A stretch of DNA of 64,000 nt, from assembly GCA_017443235.1 (NCBI GenBank), contig JAFSOV010000017.1:32947-96946 (forward strand). Reading direction: 5' to 3'. A program made the translations under genes and the position numbers. This DNA is from Alphaproteobacteria bacterium. GTDB taxonomy: Bacteria; Pseudomonadota; Alphaproteobacteria; Rs-D84. The notes under the pieces are model-generated. The model ran no database searches. It saw only the letters and a program-made list of their open reading frames with translations, and had not been told where the DNA came from. This document shows positions 1-63,373 of this stretch, one piece after another; the first letter of the stretch is position 1, and every line of letters begins with the position of its first letter.

Positions 1-1372
1 GTTGCCAACGGGTACGAAAACGGATTATGCGTGAATTTTGGCGCCCCACCCCGTTCTTCATCGGGTTCAAAGAACGGAAAATTATCGACCCAACAAAATG
101 CAAAATCGTTTTCTTTGACCAATCCTAAATCTGCGCCCAATTTATTACGCAATTTGCCCGCCGCTTTGGACGCCGCATCAACCGTATCGCAAACAAAGAA
201 CAACGACGCATTGTCACCGGCAATTTTATGCAATTTTTCAATGCGGTCCGCATCCAATTTCTTGGCAACCGGGCCTTTGGCTTCATCTGCAAATACGATA
301 TAGCCCAATCCACCAAGTCCAAGTTCTTTGGTCGCATATTCACCCAATTTATCAAACCAAGAACGCGGCCGGTCCGCACTGTTTGGTGCCGGAATCGCAC
401 GCACAACCGCGCCATTTTCAATCGCGTTCGCAAATATTCCAAAATCCGACCCACGGAAGATTTCCGTCACATCACTTATTAAAATAGGATTACGCAAATC
501 CGGTTTATCACTGCCATACTTCAACATTGCATCATCAAAAGAAATATGTGGAATTTCCGGATATATATTTGCACCCGGCAAAAACGTCCGTATAAATTCT
601 GGCATTATCGCCTCGCCTACGGCCTGAATATCCGGCAAATCAACAAAAGACATTTCCAAATCTAATTGATAGAATTCCAACAACCGGTCTGCACGCAAAT
701 CTTCATCACGAAAACACGGCGCAATTTGAAAGTATCTATCGAACCCGGACACCTGTAATAATTGTTTGAACATCTGGGGTGCCTGGGGCAACGCATAGAA
801 TTTCCCGTGATGCAAACGCGACGGGACCAAGAAACTGCGCGCGCCTTCGGGCGAATCTGCGGTCAATAACGGGGTTTGGAATTCTGAAAAACCCAATTCC
901 CACATTTTATCGCGCAACCATTTAATCATTTTGTTACGCATTAAAATATTGTGGTGCAGTTTTTCACGCCGTAAATCCAAGAAACGATATTTATACCGCA
1001 ATTCTTCACTTGTATCATCATCGCCAAAAACCTGGAACGGCAAAACATCGGCCGCGGTCAAAACATTCCACGATTGAACACTTATTTCAACTTCGCCGGT
1101 TGGGATTTTATCATTTACCTGACTTGCGTCACGCGCAACAACCCGCCCGGTCACCTGTAATACAGATTCCGGACGCACGCGTTCCAAATCTTCATTTCCA
1201 CCATCCATAACAATCTGGGTAATTCCATAATTATCGCGCAGGTCAATGAACAACAACGACCCGTGGTCGCGTTTACGATGTACCCACCCCGAAAGCGTCA
1301 CCGTTTCACCAACATTTTTCGCGGTCAATTCCCCGCAAGTATGCGTTCTGTATTTTGATTTCAGTGATAACA
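1..1372 (-). CDS. aspS: aspartyl-tRNA synthetase, N-terminal ~457 codons (3' end runs off the window)
   Basis: Absent from the ORF track because it is open at the window edge. My translation from ATG at 1372 gives MLSLKSKYRTHTCGELTAKNVGETVTLSGWVHRKRDHGSLLFIDLRDNYGITQIV and later EFYQLDLEMSF. The frame stays open to position 1. Confidence 0.85.
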
Positions 1373-1644
1373 TTTCTGTTCCCTTTTTATTTCGGGCAAC
1401 CAAGATTCAAATGATTTTGGCACCCATTGGTTAAACAACTTTTTTTCGGGGCGCATAAAGATTCGACTATGCGCGGTGCCACCCGAATTTATCACTTTTT
1501 TGTTTTTAGAACCGGCTCCGTGGTTGTTAGTCACATCAATGCCTTGTTCTAAAACTAACATGTGGGAATTCTAAAACCAAATACACACAAAAGCAAGAAA
1601 TAATAAAATACTTTTAATTAAATACACATAAAACATCTTATCTG

Positions 1645-8667: not shown

Positions 8668-9234
8668 ATGAAGCGTTTTATTTTTATTTTATCCGCAATT
8701 TTTTTAACCGCGATGCCGGCGTTTGGGGCGGATGGCAAAAACACCTTTACCGGTTTTTATAAAAACCAATTATCGTTCAATATTGGCCAGGGTATAAACA
8801 GTGGATTCATATTACCCCCACCGAACCAATTCGTTCCATTTAACCTGTTCAGCCTAAGTTATTCGCAACCGACAACATTTTTTGGTGTTCCGGCGCGCCA
8901 ATCTTTAAACGTCAACCAGACATTGGGATACGGCGACAAATATGGTTGGCATTGGCGCGACTATACGATTCCAATGGTTATGTTATCGGGTGATGTGCGG
9001 TTATCAGAATACAAAAATTTCTATGTCGCCGCCGGCGCAGGTGTCGGTATGCAGGCACAACAGAACGAACGCCTGGGCGCAAAATTACTGTTTCAGTTCA
9101 AGGTTATTGCCGGTTGGCACATAAATGACAAATGGGGGTTTGAAATATTTATGCACCATTTTTCAAACGGCAACACCGCACCCCAGAACTATTCATACGC
9201 ATTTTACGGCATCGGTGTAAATTATAATTTTTGA
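8668..9234 (+). CDS. PagL-like lipid A deacylase / acyloxyacyl hydrolase outer-membrane protein
   Basis: Signal peptide, beta-barrel-like sequence, HHFSNGN catalytic-type motif, C-terminal aromatic residue. Confidence 0.6.
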   Translation: MKRFIFILSAIFLTAMPAFGADGKNTFTGFYKNQLSFNIGQGINSGFILPPPNQFVPFNLFSLSYSQPTTFFGVPARQSLNVNQTLGYGDKYGWHWRDYTIPMVMLSGDVRLSEYKNFYVAAGAGVGMQAQQNERLGAKLLFQFKVIAGWHINDKWGFEIFMHHFSNGNTAPQNYSYAFYGIGVNYNF

Positions 9235-9419
9235 TGGTTATTATTACTAAATAATTTGTGATTGCGCACATAAAACTGGCGCGACAACAAACCAAAAATC
9301 AAAGACAGTTCACTGAATGTGAATTTATATTTTGGATGTTTATCAAAGAATTTTTCTAAACAGAAAATCAGCGATTCTTTATGTAATTTTTCTAGATATT
9401 TATCTGCTTCTGATTGCAT
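9222..9419 (-). CDS. 65-aa cassette protein (class 1, KHPxY motif)
   Basis: ATG at 9419 with AAGGAA RBS. The track start at 9443 is a TTG. Homologous to ORF 15509-15691 (KESLIFCLEKFFDKHPKYKFTFSELSLIFGLL vs KEELITAVLDFYSKHPNYRMSQNEFVGLICAI). Confidence 0.6.
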   Translation of the reverse strand: MQSEADKYLEKLHKESLIFCLEKFFDKHPKYKFTFSELSLIFGLLSRQFYVRNHKLFSNNNHQKL

Positions 9420-9451
9420 TTTTAATTCCTTGGTTTTTTTCAAAAGTTATC

Positions 9452-9630
9452 AAAAAACCGTCCAGAAAAATCAAGACGGTTGGAGGTTAAAGACTATTAC
9501 ACCAGAAATAGGTGGGCTTATTCAATATATTCGCCTCCCTCCAACCATCGGTTGGAGGTATTTTGTGTCCCCTCGGACACTGGTGTAAAACATGGGTCTT
9601 TAATCCCCAATCAACAGAACACCCGTTGAC
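9452..9630 (-). ncRNA. structured leader RNA, cassette copy A
   Basis: Helices 9596-9603/9487-9494 and 9580-9587/9498-9505. CCTCCAACC (9558-9550), GGTTGGAGG (9546-9538) and CCTCCAACC (9486-9478), the last overlapping terminator 9481-9456 plus a T-run. Compensatory changes relative to copy B. The 5' end is only approximate. Confidence 0.65.
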
Positions 9631-9672
9631 GCCATAAATATACAATAAAACACAAAAAAATCAAATCAAAAA

Positions 9673-9770
9673 TAGTGGTTAGTGGATAGAGTAAGTGGTT
9701 AGTAGATTCTGGAATAGTTTCGTAATTGTGCGCTTATTCCAGATATAACTAACCACTAGCCACTAACACC
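9673..9770. repeat. palindromic array of TTAGTGG-type heptads around a CTGGAATA/TATTCCAG hairpin
   Basis: TAGTGGTTAGTGGATAGAGTAAGTGGTTAGTAG ... CTAACCACTAGCCACTAAC. Confidence 0.8.
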
Positions 9771-9816
9771 TGTCGCGGCATGACCGCGCCGCGGTCGTGA
9801 CGGACTAACAACTATA

Positions 9817-10500
9817 TTACCATTCTATCGGCGTGCCGCCATGTGCGGCAATGTATTCGTTCGCGCGGCTAAAATGATGATTTCCAAAGAATCCGCGGTG
9901 TGCCGAAAGTGGCGATGGATGCACACTTTTCAAAATTAAATTCTTGGACGCATCAACAAATTCGGCCTTTCTTTGCGCATACGAACCCCAGAGCATATAA
10001 ACCACCCCATCGCGCCGGGTTGCCAACGCCCGAATTACCGCATCGGTAAATTGTTCCCAACCACGCCCCGCGTGCGATGCCGCCAAATGCGCCGCAACCG
10101 TCAATGTTGAATTTAATAATAAAACGCCCTGCTTTGCCCACGCGGTCAAATCGCCGTGTGTGGGACTGGGCCGGCCCAAATCCGATTCAATTTCTTTATA
10201 AATATTGACCAATGATGGTGGTGGCGTGAGTCCGTCCGGCACCGAAAAACACAGACCCATCGCCTGGCCCGGTTCGTGGTATGGGTCTTGGCCAATAATC
10301 ACAACACGCACAGAATCAAACGGACACAGGTTAAACGCATTAAAAATATTTTTTGCCGCAGGATAAATTTTCTTACCCGCCAAATATTCCCCGCGTACAA
10401 AATCGGTCAGGCGAACAAAATATTCTTTATCAAATTCATCCGCCAAAACACGTTTCCAAGATTCTTCTATTTTCACATCCATATCGTTCACTCCGTTCAA
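9817..10500 (-). CDS. ung: uracil-DNA glycosylase
   Basis: GQDPYH and HPSPLSA motifs. Confidence 0.9.
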   Translation of the reverse strand: MNGVNDMDVKIEESWKRVLADEFDKEYFVRLTDFVRGEYLAGKKIYPAAKNIFNAFNLCPFDSVRVVIIGQDPYHEPGQAMGLCFSVPDGLTPPPSLVNIYKEIESDLGRPSPTHGDLTAWAKQGVLLLNSTLTVAAHLAASHAGRGWEQFTDAVIRALATRRDGVVYMLWGSYAQRKAEFVDASKNLILKSVHPSPLSAHRGFFGNHHFSRANEYIAAHGGTPIEW

Positions 10501-15508: not shown

Positions 15509-15691
15509 CTAAATATCACTCATCATTTGTTGGGTTATTGCACAAATTAAACCAACGAATTCATTTTGGGACATTCTGTAATTGGGATGTTTAGAATAAA
15601 AATCCAAAACCGCGGTAATCAATTCTTCTTTGCCGGAATAAACCTTTACTTTGGGTTTTGTAATATTTTCTCCTTTTGATTTATTTAACAA
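15509..15691 (-). CDS. ~55-60-aa cassette protein (class 1, KHPxY motif), start uncertain
   Basis: Homolog of 9222-9419. The track start TTG lies inside the leader terminator T-run. AAAGGAG is followed by ATT. No in-frame ATG lies near the 5' end. Confidence 0.5.
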   Translation of the reverse strand: MLNKSKGENITKPKVKVYSGKEELITAVLDFYSKHPNYRMSQNEFVGLICAITQQMMSDI

Positions 15692-15872
15692 AAAACCGCC
15701 CGGAAAAAATCAAGACGGTTGGAGGTTAAAGAACTATTACGTTAGAAATAGGTGGGCCTTATTCATTTATTCAGGCCCCCTCCAACCGATGGTTGGAGGG
15801 TTTTTATGTCCCCACGGACACTAACGTAATAGAGGTTCTTTAATCCCTCATCAACAGAACGCCTGTTGACAA
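15690..15872 (-). ncRNA. structured leader RNA, cassette copy B
   Basis: Helices 15835-15843/15726-15734 and 15821-15828/15738-15745. CCTCCAACC (15799-15791), GGTTGGAGG (15787-15779), CCTCCAACC (15725-15717). Terminator plus T-run ends about 15690. Confidence 0.65.
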
Positions 15873-15913
15873 TGGAAACATATAATAAAATCAACTAAAA
15901 ATCAAATATAAAA

Positions 15914-15937
15914 TTCCAGAATCTACTAACCGCTAAC
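15914..15937. repeat. TTAGNGG-type heptads overlapping the stop codon of the upstream gene
   Basis: Minus-strand reading: GAGTTAGCGGTTAGTAGATTCTGGAA. Matches the arm of the 9673-9770 palindrome. Confidence 0.7.
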
Positions 15938-30606: not shown

Positions 30607-31218
30607 ATGTTAAAAAATATTGTAATTTTTGCACTGTGTTTTTTACCTGTTTTGTCTTTTGCAAACGATTGTGTTAAATACAAACAAACACCAAGTATAA
30701 ATGTAAATTCGCCGATATATAAAAAAAATATTATTCAATCAAATGAACAAATGGATAAATTTCACGGAAATGTGATTGCCACATTGGTTGAAGATTACGA
30801 CATTGCGGTTGATATATTTTCAACGCCTGGCGGATATTGTGTTGTATTAAAATCTGTGGATGCGTTGATTGGATATAACGATTTTTCTGTTAAAATTGAT
30901 GGTTCGCATAAATCGGGTTCTTGTTCATATAATGCGGTATTGAATCACGAAGATAAACATATAAATGCATATTTGTCTGTGATGGATGATTTAGGTATGG
31001 ATATAAACAGTTCGATATTTAATGCCGCAGATTCAATAATGCCAATATTTGTATCATCACGTGATGATATAGATTTTGCGGTGGAAGAAATAAATTATGA
31101 AATGCGTCAACATCCAGAATTGATTTTAATGAAACAAAAAATCAACGCAGCCCAAGAAATTCGTAATAAACGCGTTGACCAAAACGAAGATAATCACGAA
31201 TTAAAATCGTGTTTATAG
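30607..31218 (+). CDS. secreted protein with HExxH motif (putative Zn-metallopeptidase, DUF922-like?)
   Basis: Start at ATG 30607 (MLKNIVIFALCFLPVLSFA signal peptide). Contains LNHEDKHINAY. The track start at 30499 lies inside virB4. Confidence 0.45.
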   Translation: MLKNIVIFALCFLPVLSFANDCVKYKQTPSINVNSPIYKKNIIQSNEQMDKFHGNVIATLVEDYDIAVDIFSTPGGYCVVLKSVDALIGYNDFSVKIDGSHKSGSCSYNAVLNHEDKHINAYLSVMDDLGMDINSSIFNAADSIMPIFVSSRDDIDFAVEEINYEMRQHPELILMKQKINAAQEIRNKRVDQNEDNHELKSCL

Positions 31219-31239
31219 TGGTTAGTGTTAGTGGTTAGT
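31216..31239. repeat. TTAGTGG heptad array beginning at the stop codon
   Basis: TAGTGGTTAGTGTTAGTGGTTAGT. Confidence 0.8.
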
Positions 31240-31499: not shown

Positions 31500-31651
31500 A
31501 AAAAACCGTCAATGACAGGTTGACGGTTGGAGGCTAGAAAACCACATATATAAGATGGGTGTCGCTTATTCAATATATTCGCGACCCTCCAACCAAGTGG
31601 AGTTTTATATATATAGGGATTTTCTAGACCCCGCAACGGTGTCATCCGCGC
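31500..31651 (-). ncRNA. structured leader RNA, cassette copy C
   Basis: S1 31627-31619/31542-31534. Hairpin 31585-31561 (GTCGC, loop, GCGAC). GGTTGGAGG 31594-31586 vs CCTCCAACC 31533-31525, overlapping terminator 31528-31504 plus a T-run. Confidence 0.7.
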
Positions 31652-31657
31652 AAGCGT

Positions 31658-31686
31658 ATTATAATTGAAAACGGTTGCGATTGCAA
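31658..31686 (-). promoter_or_regulatory. sigma70 promoter of cassette C, embedded in the dnaG terminator hairpin
   Basis: TTGCAA (31686-81), 17 nt, TATAAT (31663-58). Same architecture as 62367-62395. Confidence 0.65.
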
Positions 31687-31694
31687 CCGTTTTG

Positions 31695-31789
31695 CAACTA
31701 CCCCGCCACCGCTGGTGGCCCTCCCCTTCTGAATCCACCCCAAAAAATTTCATTTTTCGGGGGCCCCGGTATAAGAAGGGGACTATCCA
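31695..31789. repeat. CCCCTTC/GAAGGGG...GGGGTAG REP-like unit (variant)
   Basis: Minus-strand reading: TCCCCTTC...GAAGGGGAGGGCCACCAGCGGTGGCGGGGTAG. Related to 43914-43960, 54259-54394 and 62558-62603. Confidence 0.55.
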
Positions 31790-33403
31790 CTAAACCAACA
31801 TTTCAAATTTTTCACGCATACGGGAAATTTCATCGTCTATACGGCGGATTTCCACGCTTACATCATTTTCTCCGGCAAGACCACGCGCGGTTAAATCACG
31901 TTTTTGTTTTTCTAAACTTTCAATATATTTTTGAATCTTTAACGAAATTATATACTTTTCCGCGGAATTCAAATCTAAATCAAAGTTTGGTTTTATATTT
32001 GAATCCAAATCCAGGTTAAATTTACTAATAAAATCGCCATACCTTTCGGCAATTTCCGGATATTTATTTACAATGTATATAAGTATGTTTTTGATAACAT
32101 TATCAATTTCTGGAACTTCTATATTTGATGAATTTTTTGAACCGTTATAATCTCGCCATTCTTTATATCTGCGATTTTTATAATCACGTTCATATTCATA
32201 CTTTAATAAATTATCTTGTATTTTATCTGTGCTTTGTTTCAAGAATTTTTCTGCCTGGGTTCGACCGGATGGCGTTTTTATTAAAAAATTCTTATTTGCT
32301 ATATTCCACAGAAAATCAACCAAAGGAACCGCATTGTTTATAATTTTCTCCATTTCCCCCCTGCCCGATTTGCGCAGTATTTCATCCGGGTCTTTGCCGC
32401 CCGTCACAAATGCAAAACTGACATTCGAATTATCACGCAAGAACGGTAATATTATACCGCACGCACGTGCCGCGGCCTTTTGTCCCGCGTTATCACCATC
32501 AAAACAGAAAACAATATTCCGGTTTGCCTTGCATAAAATTGCGATATGGTCTTCGGTCAATGCGGTACCAAGTGGCGCAACCGTTTCACCAAAACCATTA
32601 CATTGCATTTGAATTGCATCTATTTGCCCCTCTACAATAATTGCGCGGTTTGCGCGGTGTATATTTTCGCGTGCAAAATTAAACCCAAACAAAGTTTGCC
32701 GTTTGTGAAACATTTCTGTGTCTGTGGTATTTATATATTTTGGCTCTGACCCGTCCAGGCTGCGCCCGGAAAAAGCAACAATTTGCCCCCGCGCATTAAA
32801 AATTGGAAACATCAATTTATCGCGAAAGAAATCGTACAGGCCATATTCACCGCGGCGTACCAAACCCGTTGCAATAAGTTTTTCTTGTTTTGTGTTCACA
32901 AATTTATTTGCAATTATGTTATTTTTTGGTGCGTACCCAATACCATATTTTTTTATCATTTCATCACTGAACCCGCGCCCACGTATGTAGGACAGCGCAT
33001 GTGCACCTTCGGGTGCGAATAATTTTTCCGCGTATATTTTTGCCGCCGCGGTTGTAATTGTCACATATGTTTCTTCGGCCTCGATTTGTTCTGCGGTTTT
33101 TGGTTTGTATTCCGGCAACTTTAATCCCGCCATATCGGCCAATTCGGCAATTGCGGTTTTGAAATCAACATGTTCACTTTCCATAGTAAAAGAAATAATA
33201 TCACCGTGTTTTCCGCAACCAAAACAGTGATAAAAACCTTTTTCTTCACTGACCGAAAAAGATGGTGTTTTTTCATTATGAAATGGGCAACACCCCCAAT
33301 AATTTTGACCTTTCTTGACCAGTGGTACACGACGGGATATAACGTCTACGATGGAAAGTCGTTCACGTAATTGGTCGGTAAAATTATTGTCATATTTCGC
33401 CAT
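31790..33403 (-). CDS. dnaG: DNA primase
   Basis: Zinc finger CPFHNEKTPSFSV...CFGCGKHGD. TOPRIM IIVEGQIDA. Confidence 0.9.
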   Translation of the reverse strand: MAKYDNNFTDQLRERLSIVDVISRRVPLVKKGQNYWGCCPFHNEKTPSFSVSEEKGFYHCFGCGKHGDIISFTMESEHVDFKTAIAELADMAGLKLPEYKPKTAEQIEAEETYVTITTAAAKIYAEKLFAPEGAHALSYIRGRGFSDEMIKKYGIGYAPKNNIIANKFVNTKQEKLIATGLVRRGEYGLYDFFRDKLMFPIFNARGQIVAFSGRSLDGSEPKYINTTDTEMFHKRQTLFGFNFARENIHRANRAIIVEGQIDAIQMQCNGFGETVAPLGTALTEDHIAILCKANRNIVFCFDGDNAGQKAAARACGIILPFLRDNSNVSFAFVTGGKDPDEILRKSGRGEMEKIINNAVPLVDFLWNIANKNFLIKTPSGRTQAEKFLKQSTDKIQDNLLKYEYERDYKNRRYKEWRDYNGSKNSSNIEVPEIDNVIKNILIYIVNKYPEIAERYGDFISKFNLDLDSNIKPNFDLDLNSAEKYIISLKIQKYIESLEKQKRDLTARGLAGENDVSVEIRRIDDEISRMREKFEMLV

Positions 33404-39009: not shown

Positions 39010-39830
39010 TTATATTTGTTTTGTTCAAGATTAAACTTTAACACCATAACGCGGGATAATTCGCGCGGAGTCATAACATCTACATCTGAATCATTTTTCA
39101 TTTTTCCAACAAATATATCGGGCGGTAAAACACCGCTAATACCACTGGTCACCAATTTTACACCGGCATCGGGTTGAAATTTATGGTCGTTGAAGAACCC
39201 AATTGTTGGCGTGTTTGAACCGTTCCCGGCCAAAAATCCATATACTTCGGACCCGGCGATACGAACGGCGATATTGGTGTTTGAATCAATCAAAGAACGT
39301 ACACGTGCAAAATTTGCACCCGCATCTATTACTATCCCGGCCAATGTGTTATCAAAAGATACAACCACCATACCCGCCTCAATTCCATCACGCGAACCAC
39401 GGTTTATAAGAAATGTTCCATGGTGCAACGCCGAATTATCAAATATAACATCTGCAACGACACTGGCATACGGACTTTCGCGAACGATGTCCAATTCGCG
39501 TTCTAATTCTTGGTTTTCAAGCAACGCAATATCACATTTGTTTTTATCGGCCAATGCCTGGTCCAATCGGGCACGTAATTCTTCGTTTTCTTGTTCAAGG
39601 TTATAAAGGGTGTGCACCCGTTTTATGATTTTGCCGCCCGCCCTAATCGGCCAAGTCACCAAATCACCAAGGCCATTTACAACAGGCAATGCAATATGGG
39701 CCACCCCATTCATAACGCGATAATCCGGCTTTGCCACCACAATATATATGAAAACAAACGGCAAAATCGCCGCAACAATCGCGGATTTTATAATTGTGTG
39801 CAATCTGGAAGATGTTTTCTTTGGGTTCAT
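39006..39830 (-). CDS. mreC: rod shape-determining protein MreC
   Basis: N-terminal TM segment, coiled coil (LEQENEELRARLDQ), beta-rich C-terminus. Confidence 0.8.
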   Translation of the reverse strand: MNPKKTSSRLHTIIKSAIVAAILPFVFIYIVVAKPDYRVMNGVAHIALPVVNGLGDLVTWPIRAGGKIIKRVHTLYNLEQENEELRARLDQALADKNKCDIALLENQELERELDIVRESPYASVVADVIFDNSALHHGTFLINRGSRDGIEAGMVVVSFDNTLAGIVIDAGANFARVRSLIDSNTNIAVRIAGSEVYGFLAGNGSNTPTIGFFNDHKFQPDAGVKLVTSGISGVLPPDIFVGKMKNDSDVDVMTPRELSRVMVLKFNLEQNKYK

Positions 39831-39980
39831 TTGTGGTTCAGTTTAAACGTAAAAAAATCATTATTCAATAAAATTCAATAAAAACTTGATTTTTCGTTTA
39901 TTTGTGTCAAAATATGCGCGTTAAACACCCAAAGTGGCAGAGGCATTGCCACCAGGATTATTAAAACAAGAGGTAAAAAA

Positions 39981-58215: not shown

Positions 58216-58292
58216 TGGTGGGTGGTATTGGACTCGAACCAACGACCTTTACGATGTCAACGTAACGCTCTAACCAACTGAGCTAACCACCC
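58216..58292 (-). tRNA. tRNA-Val (GAC)
   Basis: GGGTGGT acceptor, TTACG-TTGACAT-CGTAA anticodon arm, TTCGAGT T-loop, encoded CCA. Confidence 0.9.
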
Positions 58293-58318
58293 ATATTTTT
58301 CAAGTGTTCTCAGACCGG

Positions 58319-58375
58319 GAACCAACGACCTTTACGATGTCAACGTACGCGGCTTCCCAACCGAGCTAACCACCC
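58319..58375 (-). pseudogene. 5' fragment (about nt 1-57) of a tRNA-Val(GAC) copy
   Basis: GGGTGGTTAGCTCGGTTGGGAAGCCGCGTACGTTGACATCGTAAAGGTCGTTGGTTC, then unrelated sequence. The D arm is altered and the T-arm 3' half and acceptor 3' strand are missing. Confidence 0.7.
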
Positions 58376-58386
58376 AAACGAACGCC

Positions 58387-58414
58387 ATTATAACAAAGAA
58401 TTTCCCGATTGCAA
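58387..58414 (-). promoter_or_regulatory. sigma70 promoter driving the tRNA-Val fragment and tRNA-Val
   Basis: TTGCAA (58414-09), 16 nt, TATAAT (58392-87), about 11 nt before the fragment. Confidence 0.6.
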
Positions 58415-58445
58415 GAATTATGTATTTGATAAGTTTATAGAGATA

Positions 58446-58600
58446 AGAAAAGCAGGAGGGTCATAACTACTCAAAGCAAAATAGTCCAGTGTATTGGGTA
58501 TTTCACTGGCCTCCTGCCATTGTGAAGTGTGCAGGATTTTATGTCCGCGCGGACATGCTTTGAGCAGGGCTATGACACCCCCTTGTACGGTTGCCCGTAC
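58446..58600 (-). ncRNA. candidate ~155-nt sRNA of unknown family
   Basis: TTGAAA (58635-30), 17 nt, TATAAT (58612-07). Several hairpins. A closing stem with a 3' CCTCCTGC followed by TTTTCTT. No plausible ORF. Confidence 0.35.
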
Positions 58601-58711
58601 AAAGCAATTATAAATGTAATAAAGATTTTTTTCAATACATAAAAAACACCGGCATTTGCCGATGTTTTTCACTAACCCTTGTCCACCGAAGCCCAAAGGG
58701 CGAAGGCGGAA

Positions 58712-62341: not shown

Positions 62342-62357
62342 GTGTTAGTGGTTAGTG
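62342..62357. repeat. TTAGTGG heptads immediately after the accC stop codon
   Basis: TAA-GTGTTAGTGGTTAGTG. Confidence 0.8.
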
Positions 62358-62366
62358 CGAAAACGG

Positions 62367-62395
62367 TTGCAATTGCGGCCGTTTTTATTTATAAT
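62367..62395 (+). promoter_or_regulatory. sigma70 promoter of cassette D, embedded in the accC terminator hairpin
   Basis: TTGCAA (62367-72), 17 nt, TATAAT (62390-95). Confidence 0.65.
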
Positions 62396-62401
62396 GTTTT
62401 C

Positions 62402-62554
62402 GCATTGGGTGACAACCATTGCGGGGTCTAGAAAACCCCTTTAACACAGCAAAATCTCCACTTGGTTGGAGGGTTGCGAATATATCGAATAAGCAACACT
62501 GTTTTGTGTTACAGTTTTCTAGCCTCCAACCGTCAATCATTTTGACGGTTTTTT
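62402..62554 (+). ncRNA. structured leader RNA, cassette copy D
   Basis: S1 62428-36/62514-22. Helix 62442-54/62502-11. Hairpin 62473-97. GGTTGGAGG 62464-72 vs CCTCCAACC 62523-31, overlapping terminator 62528-50 plus a T-run to 62554. Confidence 0.7.
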
Positions 62555-62877: not shown

Positions 62878-62908
62878 ACTAACCACTACCACTAACACTA
62901 ACCACTAA
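62877..62908. repeat. inverted TTAGTGG heptad array abutting the sspB stop codon
   Basis: CACTAACCACTACCACTAACACTAACCACTAA. Confidence 0.8.
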
Positions 62909-63373
62909 TCACTTCTTCCGCCGTCTAAATTCATCCAATGATACAACGCGGCCGGTGTCGGGAATTGTGTCACCCGTTCCTTCCAATGGTAATTCTATAT
63001 CATTGTCCGGTGCAGACGGTTTCGGGCGTTTATTAAACGACAATATAAAATCAACCGACGGGTCTTTGAATTCCACCAATGCCGAAAAAGGAACGCGAAT
63101 AAAAAACGGCCGCCCATCAAACGTCAATTGAACACCAAATTCTTTGTCCGACACGTGCAGGTTATTATAAGAATACTGCAACACAATCGTCATTATGTCC
63201 GGGTATCGTATACGCAGGAAATCCGGCAATACAACCCCCGCATCATGCGTGCGAAATGTTATAAAGAAATGCGTCCCGTCACCCAGTCCGTTTATCTGCG
63301 CAAAAACCAACGCATCACGCACCACAGATTTTAACGCCGTGTCCAACAAAGCCTGATAGTCTATTTTTGCCAT
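62909..63373 (-). CDS. sspB: ClpXP adaptor SspB (alphaproteobacterial type)
   Basis: HFFITFRTHDAGVVLPDFLRIRYPDIMTIVLQYSYNNLHV...FIRVPFSALVEFKDPSVDF. Confidence 0.7.
   Translation of the reverse strand: MAKIDYQALLDTALKSVVRDALVFAQINGLGDGTHFFITFRTHDAGVVLPDFLRIRYPDIMTIVLQYSYNNLHVSDKEFGVQLTFDGRPFFIRVPFSALVEFKDPSVDFILSFNKRPKPSAPDNDIELPLEGTGDTIPDTGRVVSLDEFRRRKK

Follow-up and report, generated by a model that had tools for sequence, protein, structure and literature searches.

The 64,000-nt stretch of DNA analysed here (the window; positions 32,947 to 96,946 of contig JAFSOV010000017.1, assembly GCA_017443235.1, from an alphaproteobacterium of the Rs-D84 lineage) contains five copies, A to E, of a leader sequence. 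The copy A locus occupies positions 9222-9770 of the minus strand and includes a promoter, a leader of ~180 nt and an open reading frame (ORF) of 65 amino acids (aa). Comparison with its relatives suggests that this leader is, probably, a promoter-proximal, cis-acting transcription attenuator from an uncatalogued family of Rs-D84 leaders that would adopt two mutually exclusive folds, both of which appear, from the patterns of sequence change, to be under selection. An earlier note on this DNA, made from sequence alone, had interpreted three 9-mer segments and the terminator of copy A as a switch, in which pairing of segments 1 and 2 (1:2), together with pairing of segment 3 with the 3' arm of the terminator (3:4), would terminate transcription, and 2:3 pairing would allow read-through. 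The comparative evidence supports each of these pairings; judged by their conservation across the family, all three are apparently maintained, and they would exclude one another. The parts of the copy A locus are as follows.

9673-9767, minus strand: heptad (TAGTGGT-type) palindrome followed by a U-run (inverted repeats I1, I2, I4 and I5; fold z = -6.05)
9637-9664, minus strand: promoter, TTGATT (-35), 16-nt spacer, TATATT (-10); the -10 box aligns with the family TATAAT
9610-9630, minus strand: P0, the 5'-terminal hairpin GUCAACGG-GUGUU-CUGUUGAU, which begins ~7 nt past the -10 box
9594-9608, minus strand: GGGG (9608-9605), P1 5' strand (9603-9596) and CCC (9596-9594)
9581-9588, minus strand: P2 5' strand, UUACACCA
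9565-9580, minus strand: P3 hairpin, GUGUCC-GAGG-GGACAC, missing from copies C and D
9550-9558, minus strand: segment 1, CCUCCAACC, the 5' arm of P4 and putative anti-antiterminator strand (helix 94% paired)
9538-9546, minus strand: segment 2, GGUUGGAGG, a potential partner of either segment 1 or segment 3
9515-9535, minus strand: P5 hairpin with the conserved loop GAAUAUAUUGAAUAA
9487-9511, minus strand: CUAUU (9511-9507), P2 3' strand (9504-9497), AAUAG (9498-9494) and P1 3' strand (9494-9487)
9478-9486, minus strand: segment 3, CCUCCAACC, which can pair through CCUCC with the 5' GGGG while AACC opens the terminator, or through all nine bases with segment 2
9452-9481, minus strand: intrinsic terminator, AACCGUC, 12-nt loop, GACGGUU, then a U-run (TTTTTT in DNA)
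9222-9430, minus strand: ribosome-binding site AGGA (9430-9427) and 65-aa ORF (ATG at 9419, stop at 9222)

All elements of copy A that the earlier note had named are found at the coordinates it gave. The 9-mer CCTCCAACC is present at 9558-9550 and 9486-9478, and its complement GGTTGGAGG at 9546-9538, all on the minus strand; CCTCCAACC occurs 10 times in the window, where 0.25 occurrences are expected (0 of 100 shuffles as high), and every occurrence is within a leader copy. The outer helix TTAAAGAC/GTCTTTAA, the second helix TACACCAG/CTGGTGTA, the GAATATATTGAATAA loop (9532-9518) and the promoter TTGATT-16-TATATT (9664-9637, minus strand) are likewise there, and the terminator overlaps the third 9-mer, sharing its last 4 nt. 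The gene upstream, taken for ung, is indeed an ORF (9817-10500, minus strand) with a UDG domain. The layout that had been set apart as 'class 1' exists, as the mainstream architecture of the whole family.

Under the mechanism that we propose, the OFF state (Fold A) would consist of a junction closed by P1 and P2 and bearing P3, P4 (1:2) and P5; CCUCC of segment 3 would pair with the 5' GGGG and stack on P1, and the remaining AACC would nucleate the terminator, stopping transcription before the small ORF. In the ON state (Fold B), segment 2 would leave segment 1 and take up all nine bases of segment 3, with AACC lost to the terminator; the strands freed from P1 and P2 would be capped by two small hairpins, X (GGGG...CCC) and Y (CUAU...AUAG), P1 might persist as an H-type pseudoknot with X, and RNA polymerase would proceed into the downstream gene. 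The balance between the folds would be set by a signal, which could be a protein that binds the RNA, control by temperature or kinetics, or else a small molecule or an ion, in which case the leader would be a riboswitch.

The family was collected in several steps. An asymmetric sequence pattern, scanned across one genome per species, retrieved at least 119 loci; it replaced a first pattern, GTTGGAGG..CCTCCAAC, which is its own reverse complement and recovered mostly chance inverted repeats. A further 56 loci came from metagenome contigs of human gut, rumen and similar origin, scanned with a second pattern that left the 9-mers free. A covariance model built from 18 similar copies produced at least 123 matches in 100 sources, and 66 in the metagenome loci; the counts over 123 copies and the 123-sequence alignment used below refer to the copies among the matches listed. 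MAFFT alignments of all copies misplaced P1 and P2, and the covariance-model alignment was used instead. Altogether, at least ~180 members of the family were collected, and with few exceptions their sources are uncultured Alphaproteobacteria of the gut and rumen (order Rs-D84, 'Ca. Enterousia'). Nearly all of the loci listed by the one-genome-per-species scan come from genome bins labelled 'Candidatus Enterousia', Rickettsiales or Alphaproteobacteria, and several loci per genome are common.

The members share one order of parts: an extended -10 box, a 5' hairpin, a multi-helix fold, an intrinsic terminator, and a ribosome-binding site with a start codon. The four copies listed in the earlier note align along the whole leader and, when truncated ahead of the third 9-mer, are predicted to form nested helices that include the conserved GAAUAUAUUGAAUAA loop. 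The -10 box, TGnTATAAT, lies ~7 nt 5' of P0, and its T10 and A11 are at least 90% conserved (126 copies). The loop of P0 is mostly a 7-nt NGNGUUN and otherwise a GNRA tetraloop. P0 is followed by GGGG (or GAGG), a 2-nt linker, the P1 5' strand and CCC(N), and then by the P2 5' strand, the optional P3, an A-rich joiner and the P4 hairpin, which consists of segment 1 (CUCCAAC-like), a short loop and segment 2, GGUUGGAGG. The P5 loop has the form GAAUA...AAUAA, expanded in some copies to GAAUAA-helix-AAAUAA (an internal loop and an extra helix). After P5 come CRC-CUAU, the P2 3' strand, AUAG, the P1 3' strand, segment 3 (CCUCCAACC), the remainder of the terminator and the U-run. In most copies, the ribosome-binding site and start codon follow on the same strand ~35-100 nt past the end of segment 3.

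Fold A is strongly conserved as a structure. In the 123-sequence alignment (A5), which was fitted to the Fold A model and accordingly biases the counts toward this fold, 95.6% of the P0-P5 cells are paired, compared with 38-44% after sliding of the 3' partners; both sides have changed at 41 of 42 pairs, and covariation scores 0.637 versus ~0.07, an effect that far exceeds what the alignment bias could give. Changes on both sides occur at all six pairs of P0 (96% of cells paired) and at all ten pairs of P2, and P1 is 98.7% paired, with covariation at each of its seven pairs. The sequences of P0, P1 and P2 are wholly different between copies, even inside the window. The nucleotides that are both conserved and unpaired in the two folds are the GAAUA of the P5 loop (at least 90-97% conserved), the A-rich junction J3/4 and the G that follows segment 2. 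The leader thus combines, as riboswitch aptamers do, a conserved, covarying structure with invariant loop and junction nucleotides.

The 2:3 pairing, on which Fold B depends, is conserved as well. Over the alignment, 98.7% of the 2:3 cells are paired, with 17 double-change cells where shuffles give 0.8 (none of 500 reached 17). At least eight distinct types of compensated variants were found: GGUUGGAGU/ACUCCAACC, GGUUGGAGA/UCUCCAACC, GAUUGGAG/CUCCAAUC, GGCAGGAGG/CCUCCUGCC, GGCUGGAGG/CCUCCAGCC, GGUCAGGAGG/CCUCCUGACC, GGUCGGGUG/CACCCGACC and GGACAG/CUGUCC. Because most of the sequences were retrieved with the 9-mers fixed, the informative cases are the copies in flanking DNA and those from the free-9-mer scan, where the consensus 2/3 pair is present in 41 of 58 distinct copies. 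In some variants, segment 1 changes along with the other two segments (CCUGC in copy E of the window, UGCCUGACC in locus L176, GCUCCUGUC in L256 and CUCCUGA in L263). The terminator follows suit: where segment 3 ends in the mutated tail GCC, the 3' arm reads GGC in place of GGUU (L289, L263, L256).

The terminator hairpin with its U-run is present in 115 of the 123 copies, between the promoter and the ORF, and in 103 of these 115 the stem starts at AACC of segment 3 (offset 5-6), that is, within the strand that 2:3 pairing would sequester. This prevalence bears on an alternative in which control is mainly translational, with CCUCC of segment 3 (or 1) masking the ribosome-binding site, or GGAGG of segment 2 titrating 30S subunits. 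CCUCC does occur in segments 1 and 3 and GGAGG in segment 2, many downstream ribosome-binding sites are GGAGGUU, complementary to AACCUCC, and the three leaders that precede ABC-transporter genes have no terminator. However, segment 3 is already paired in each of the two folds, and the variants change the bases flanking CCUCC in concert with segment 2 and not with the downstream ribosome-binding site; with a terminator in nearly every copy, we consider this explanation very improbable. Pairing between segment 2 and the 16S rRNA 3' end beyond GGAGG was not apparent in a comparison with a generic alphaproteobacterial 16S sequence, not the host's own. The leaders in question (L114:8430-8640, L139 and L193) stand ahead of a ~595-aa ABC-transporter-like gene and, in place of a U-run terminator, carry a different hairpin after segment 3, then GGAGAG-ATG; they may represent a translational or constitutive variant.

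The switch described in the earlier note holds as a three-part pairing but is incomplete, as P1 and P2, set against hairpins X and Y, also take part. Hairpin X pairs GGGG with CCC, with the P1 5' strand in its loop, and hairpin Y pairs CUAU(U) with (A)AUAG around the P2 3' strand. Although neither is compatible with Fold A, both co-vary: taken together, 94.4% of their cells are paired, and 64 cells show double changes, versus 16.8 in shuffles. When 2:3 pairing is enforced, X arises unprompted in 75 of 121 predicted folds and Y in 73 of 121. The 2-nt linker ahead of a P1 of 6-7 bp may fit an H-type pseudoknot of X with P1, and, given this fit, P1 may survive in Fold B, stacked on the 2:3 helix; no linker is available to cross P2, and hence Y and P2 cannot coexist sterically.

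Several observations weigh against this two-fold attenuator, in addition to the alignment bias already mentioned. The covariation in segments 2 and 3 derives from ~25 variant copies, given that the retrieval pattern fixed both segments. In the sample with these segments unfixed (A6), there are 5 double-change cells versus 1.1, and the other measures are not significant, in part because variant copies are misaligned. X and Y each depend mainly on one strongly co-varying pair (56:72, with GC in 76 copies, AU in 23 and GU in 18, and 304:325, with UA in 82 and AU in 27, respectively). Above all, the computed energies do not favor Fold B. In full-length minimum-energy folds, the 5' GGGG pairs with CCUC of segment 3, lengthening P1 and leaving AACC for the terminator, and Fold A with the terminator is the minimum-energy structure in ~107 of 121 copies. 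Under nested models, enforcing 2:3 costs a mean of 10.8 kcal/mol in full-length RNA, about the value of P1, a helix that these models have to break; for RNA that ends directly 3' of segment 3, before the terminator is made, Fold A is favored by 9.8 kcal/mol. Copy A, whose 1:2 hairpin has a perfect stem of 9 bp and a 3-nt loop, shows a gap of 13 kcal/mol and, by these models, could reach Fold B only with help or if a pseudoknot contributed; the gap is 2-7 kcal/mol for copies C and D, where 1:2 has 5-6 bp and P3 is absent. Since the nested-model energies favor Fold A, the default state would be termination, and the read-through state would, as modelled, depend on a contribution from a pseudoknot, on some factor or on a kinetic route; the main gap of the proposed mechanism lies here.

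The same energies could be taken to mean that the structure is static, with P4 fixed, segment 3 pairing only with GGGG and the terminator, and the 2:3 complementarity a by-product of the similarity between segments 1 and 3. The minimum-energy folds of truncated as well as full-length RNAs, which are almost always Fold A, and the very stable 1:2 hairpin of copy A are compatible with such a structure. A by-product, however, would not account for the complementarity of segment 3 to segment 2 at all nine positions, including those that are unneeded for pairing with GGGG, and its maintenance through the variants listed above; for perfect pairing being more frequent for 2:3 (116 of 123 copies) than for 1:2 (56 of 123); or for the covariation of X and Y, which have no role in a static Fold A. 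A static structure therefore seems improbable to us.

A more serious rival to the cis-acting attenuator, indeed the most serious one, is that these units are free-standing genes for trans-acting small RNAs (sRNAs), with the terminator marking the sRNA 3' end and read-through into the downstream gene being incidental. The promoter at a fixed distance and the conserved terminator are equally expected of sRNA genes, and the conserved GAAUA...AAUAA loop, unpaired in both folds, could serve as a seed. The copies that no ORF follows fit this explanation and count against attenuation: these are the tandem units at L159, L239, L136, L219 and L200, which have no intervening ORF and, where this was checked (L159), a promoter each, and copy E of the window, which stands before a tRNA-Val gene that has its own promoter. 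On the other side, most copies stand directly ahead of a gene's ribosome-binding site and start codon, in the same orientation, and the short spacing between segment 3 and the start codon leaves little room past the terminator for a separate promoter, which supports the cis reading. Furthermore, a plain sRNA has no need of a compensated 2:3 pairing that overlaps its terminator, and a search of the window for trans targets complementary to the P5 loop found none above chance. On balance, we regard free-standing sRNA genes as unlikely.

Tandem leaders, 27-285 nt apart, were observed at L159:62-1122(-), L239:2354-3032(-), L136:6899-7302(-), L219:3386-3743(+), L200:2798-3144(-) and L204:724-1155(+). 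Each unit has its own promoter where this was checked (L159), and there is no intervening ORF. In four of the six arrays, the upstream unit carries a non-consensus, internally compensated segment 2/3, a variation that could keep neighbouring units from cross-pairing. At L159, a ~100-nt repeat (…CGCCTCCTCGCAATGACAATGTAGATAATCCCGAGCAATTCATCACTATTGTCACCGCGAGCGCAGCG…) is present three times upstream of tandem leader pairs (480-600, 1150-1260 and 1270-1400, minus strand).

The four copies reported in the earlier note are real, but the total in the window is five, with the fifth, copy E, found by profile and covariance-model searches; the strand of copy D had to be corrected to plus. A possible sixth copy at 39827-39963 (18 bits) was rejected on reading its sequence. 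The copies other than A are as follows.

15709-15880, minus strand: copy B (covariance-model score 113.8 bits)
31517-31661, minus strand: copy C, of the subclass without P3, ahead of a 70-aa XRE-like gene (51.9 bits; Pfam HTH_19 below threshold)
62392-62539, plus strand: copy D, of the subclass without P3, ahead of a 75-aa XRE-like gene (70.2 bits)
58443-58613, minus strand: copy E, absent from the earlier list (62.5 bits; segments CCUGC / GCAGGAGG / CCUCCUGC)

In copy E, segments 1, 2 and 3 are privately compensated, and there is neither a terminator hairpin nor a downstream ORF; next comes the tRNA-Val gene. The region 3' of this copy (58216-58400, minus strand) contains a second promoter, TTGCAA-17-TATAAT, a partial, degenerate duplicate of tRNA-Val (~58375-58305) and the intact tRNA-Val(gac). 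The small ORF of copy B (15509-15664, minus strand) has no ATG, GTG or TTG where its homologue at locus L229 has the start ATG; an ATT 5-6 nt past AGGAG is the only candidate start, which may reflect a rare start codon or decay.

The heptad array next to copy A, which the earlier note had taken for the beginning of the cassette, is a genuine long imperfect inverted repeat but not a part of the leader element. Related arrays, TAGTGGTTAGT / ACTAACCACTA, bracket copies C and D in inverted orientation and precede copy B (31214-31237, 31784-31794, 62344-62354, 62878-62909 and 15927-15937); among the collected loci, such arrays are limited to the genome of the window and its close relatives L225 and L229, a single species group, and we ruled them out as a component of the element. 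The palindrome at copy A is probably a species-specific repeat and/or the ung terminator that adjoins a member of the leader family, and the arrays in general could be a repetitive extragenic palindromic (REP)-like repeat, an operator array or a terminator adjunct. Inverted arrays flanking C and D and preceding A, in a family with many copies, might bring to mind a mobile cassette, similar to an integron cassette or to a miniature inverted-repeat transposable element, with the heptads as terminal repeats and the likeness between copies due to recent copying. This explanation fails because the arrays are limited to one species group, so that almost all other members of the family lack them, and because the helices show structural selection: the sequences of P0, P1 and P2 diverge entirely while their pairing is kept, which is not what recent transposition would leave behind. 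We judge it highly improbable.

The attenuator to which these comparisons point would work, by analogy, like the leaders of the S-box or PyrR type, with a terminator, an antiterminator and an anti-antiterminator. Like the S-box (SAM-I) leaders, the present one has a multi-helix junction shut by long-range helices, multiple copies per genome, no leader peptide and a three-tier logic, in which an anti-antiterminator would block the antiterminator that would otherwise sequester the terminator 5' arm. Unlike them, it matches neither SAM-I nor any other Rfam riboswitch; its switching strand is the 3' arm of the internal hairpin P4 and not the P1 3' strand; its competing strands are near-identical 9-mers, supplemented by the capping hairpins X and Y; and its genes encode secreted and small helix-turn-helix (HTH) proteins instead of metabolic enzymes. 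With the PyrR-dependent pyr attenuators, it shares the competition of a local anti-antiterminator hairpin with an antiterminator and a terminator, and here too a protein could make the hairpin (1:2) more or less stable, but Rfam scans of the leader gave no match to the PyrR binding site and no pyr genes are associated with it. The four-segment alternative pairing (1:2, 2:3, 3:4) is that of trp-type attenuators; the family is far more structured (P0, P1, P2, P3, P5, X, Y), and the description of its logic in the earlier note as classical, trp-type attenuation does not hold because a conserved leader peptide was not found. ATG ORFs are scattered over the leaders, none at a conserved position, with a Shine-Dalgarno-like motif upstream of 28 of them by a crude test, and leader-peptide attenuation was rejected for the lack of an ORF at a fixed position. 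The cyclic di-GMP (c-di-GMP) riboswitches (GEMM-I and GEMM-II) are similar in having many copies per genome, terminator-based platforms and occurrences on phage-like contigs, and in often preceding genes for surface, adhesion and secreted proteins, but the leader has a different fold and no match to their covariance models. We know of no evidence that these reduced genomes use c-di-GMP.

As far as can be judged from sequence comparison, the leader RNA is thus a putative new, uncatalogued family of cis-regulatory attenuators. Scans of the window and 15 related loci against Rfam 15 (whose families include SAM-I, T-box, the PyrR site, c-di-GMP-I/II, ykkC and self-cleaving ribozymes) at the gathering threshold matched only tRNAs, and relaxing the cutoff to E <= 10 for the region 9380-9800 added only chance matches of 11-18 bits. 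Searches of the literature for the organisms, for the 9-mers and for riboswitches in Rs-D84 found no description of the motif, and a blastn search of GenBank phage records returned only a chance 27-nt match. Four IMG/VR contigs classed as viral (L074, L116, L114 and L080) all carry typical leaders; these may be Rs-D84 prophages or misclassified chromosomal fragments.

What sets this family apart is that the competing 9-mers are nearly identical, that capping hairpins are present, that the leader is tightly coupled to its promoter, that the putative regulon is one of orphan secreted proteins, and that the copy number is very high in tiny genomes, those of Rs-D84 bacteria being smaller than 1 Mb (PMC12306168). 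By rough extrapolation, the five copies in 64 kb correspond to ~70 per genome, and the frequency of secondary copies in the flanking DNA, about one every 36 kb, equally roughly, to ~25. The leader is possibly a riboswitch. The fuller proposal, of a new riboswitch class or direct RNA sensor with ~25-70 copies per genome, a bistable whole-molecule fold and the secretome together with small HTH regulators as its main regulon, is one that we put forward tentatively and hold to be somewhat less probable than its negation; if true, it would amount to an RNA-based global switch in place of lost protein regulators in the Rs-D84 gut symbionts. To our knowledge, Rs-D84 ('Ca. Enterousia') bacteria are uncultured and almost nothing is known of their gene regulation; the leader family would be their dominant regulatory device and a handle on the control of the cell surface. 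Its ~180 natural sequences, with covariation in both conformations, capping hairpins and a triple 9-mer competition, make it well suited to a search for ligands and to work on co-transcriptional folding.

Among the 118 ORFs downstream of the leaders, ~60 encode a signal peptide and belong to no Pfam family, 31 fall into three small-protein families that we grouped as XRE-like, and three are ABC-transporter-like. For two of these families, the grouping is confirmed by representatives that match HTH families in Pfam; the third, with 5 members, matches no family. Almost all of the 15 leader copies without P3 precede XRE-like genes. This set of secreted orphans and XRE-like proteins points to no specific ligand.

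The product of the 65-aa ORF of copy A is an orphan. As the earlier note had it, this is not an XRE protein: there is no match in Pfam, PHROGs or NCBIfam, and the predicted structure has no HTH match. The copy B product, with which the earlier note had grouped it, is similar (31% identity over 36 aa, pairwise E = 2e-6), and so is one relative at L229; among the collected loci, these are the only two likenesses. A single homology search matched the protein only to itself, and a structure search with the model gave no significant match (best PDB hit, E = 5.4). The AlphaFold model is a two-helix hairpin (predicted local distance difference test, pLDDT, 84.5). The ORF overlaps, by ~13 nt (9222-9234), the 3' end of a convergent gene for a PagL-domain (lipid A deacylase-like) protein at 8668-9234 on the plus strand.

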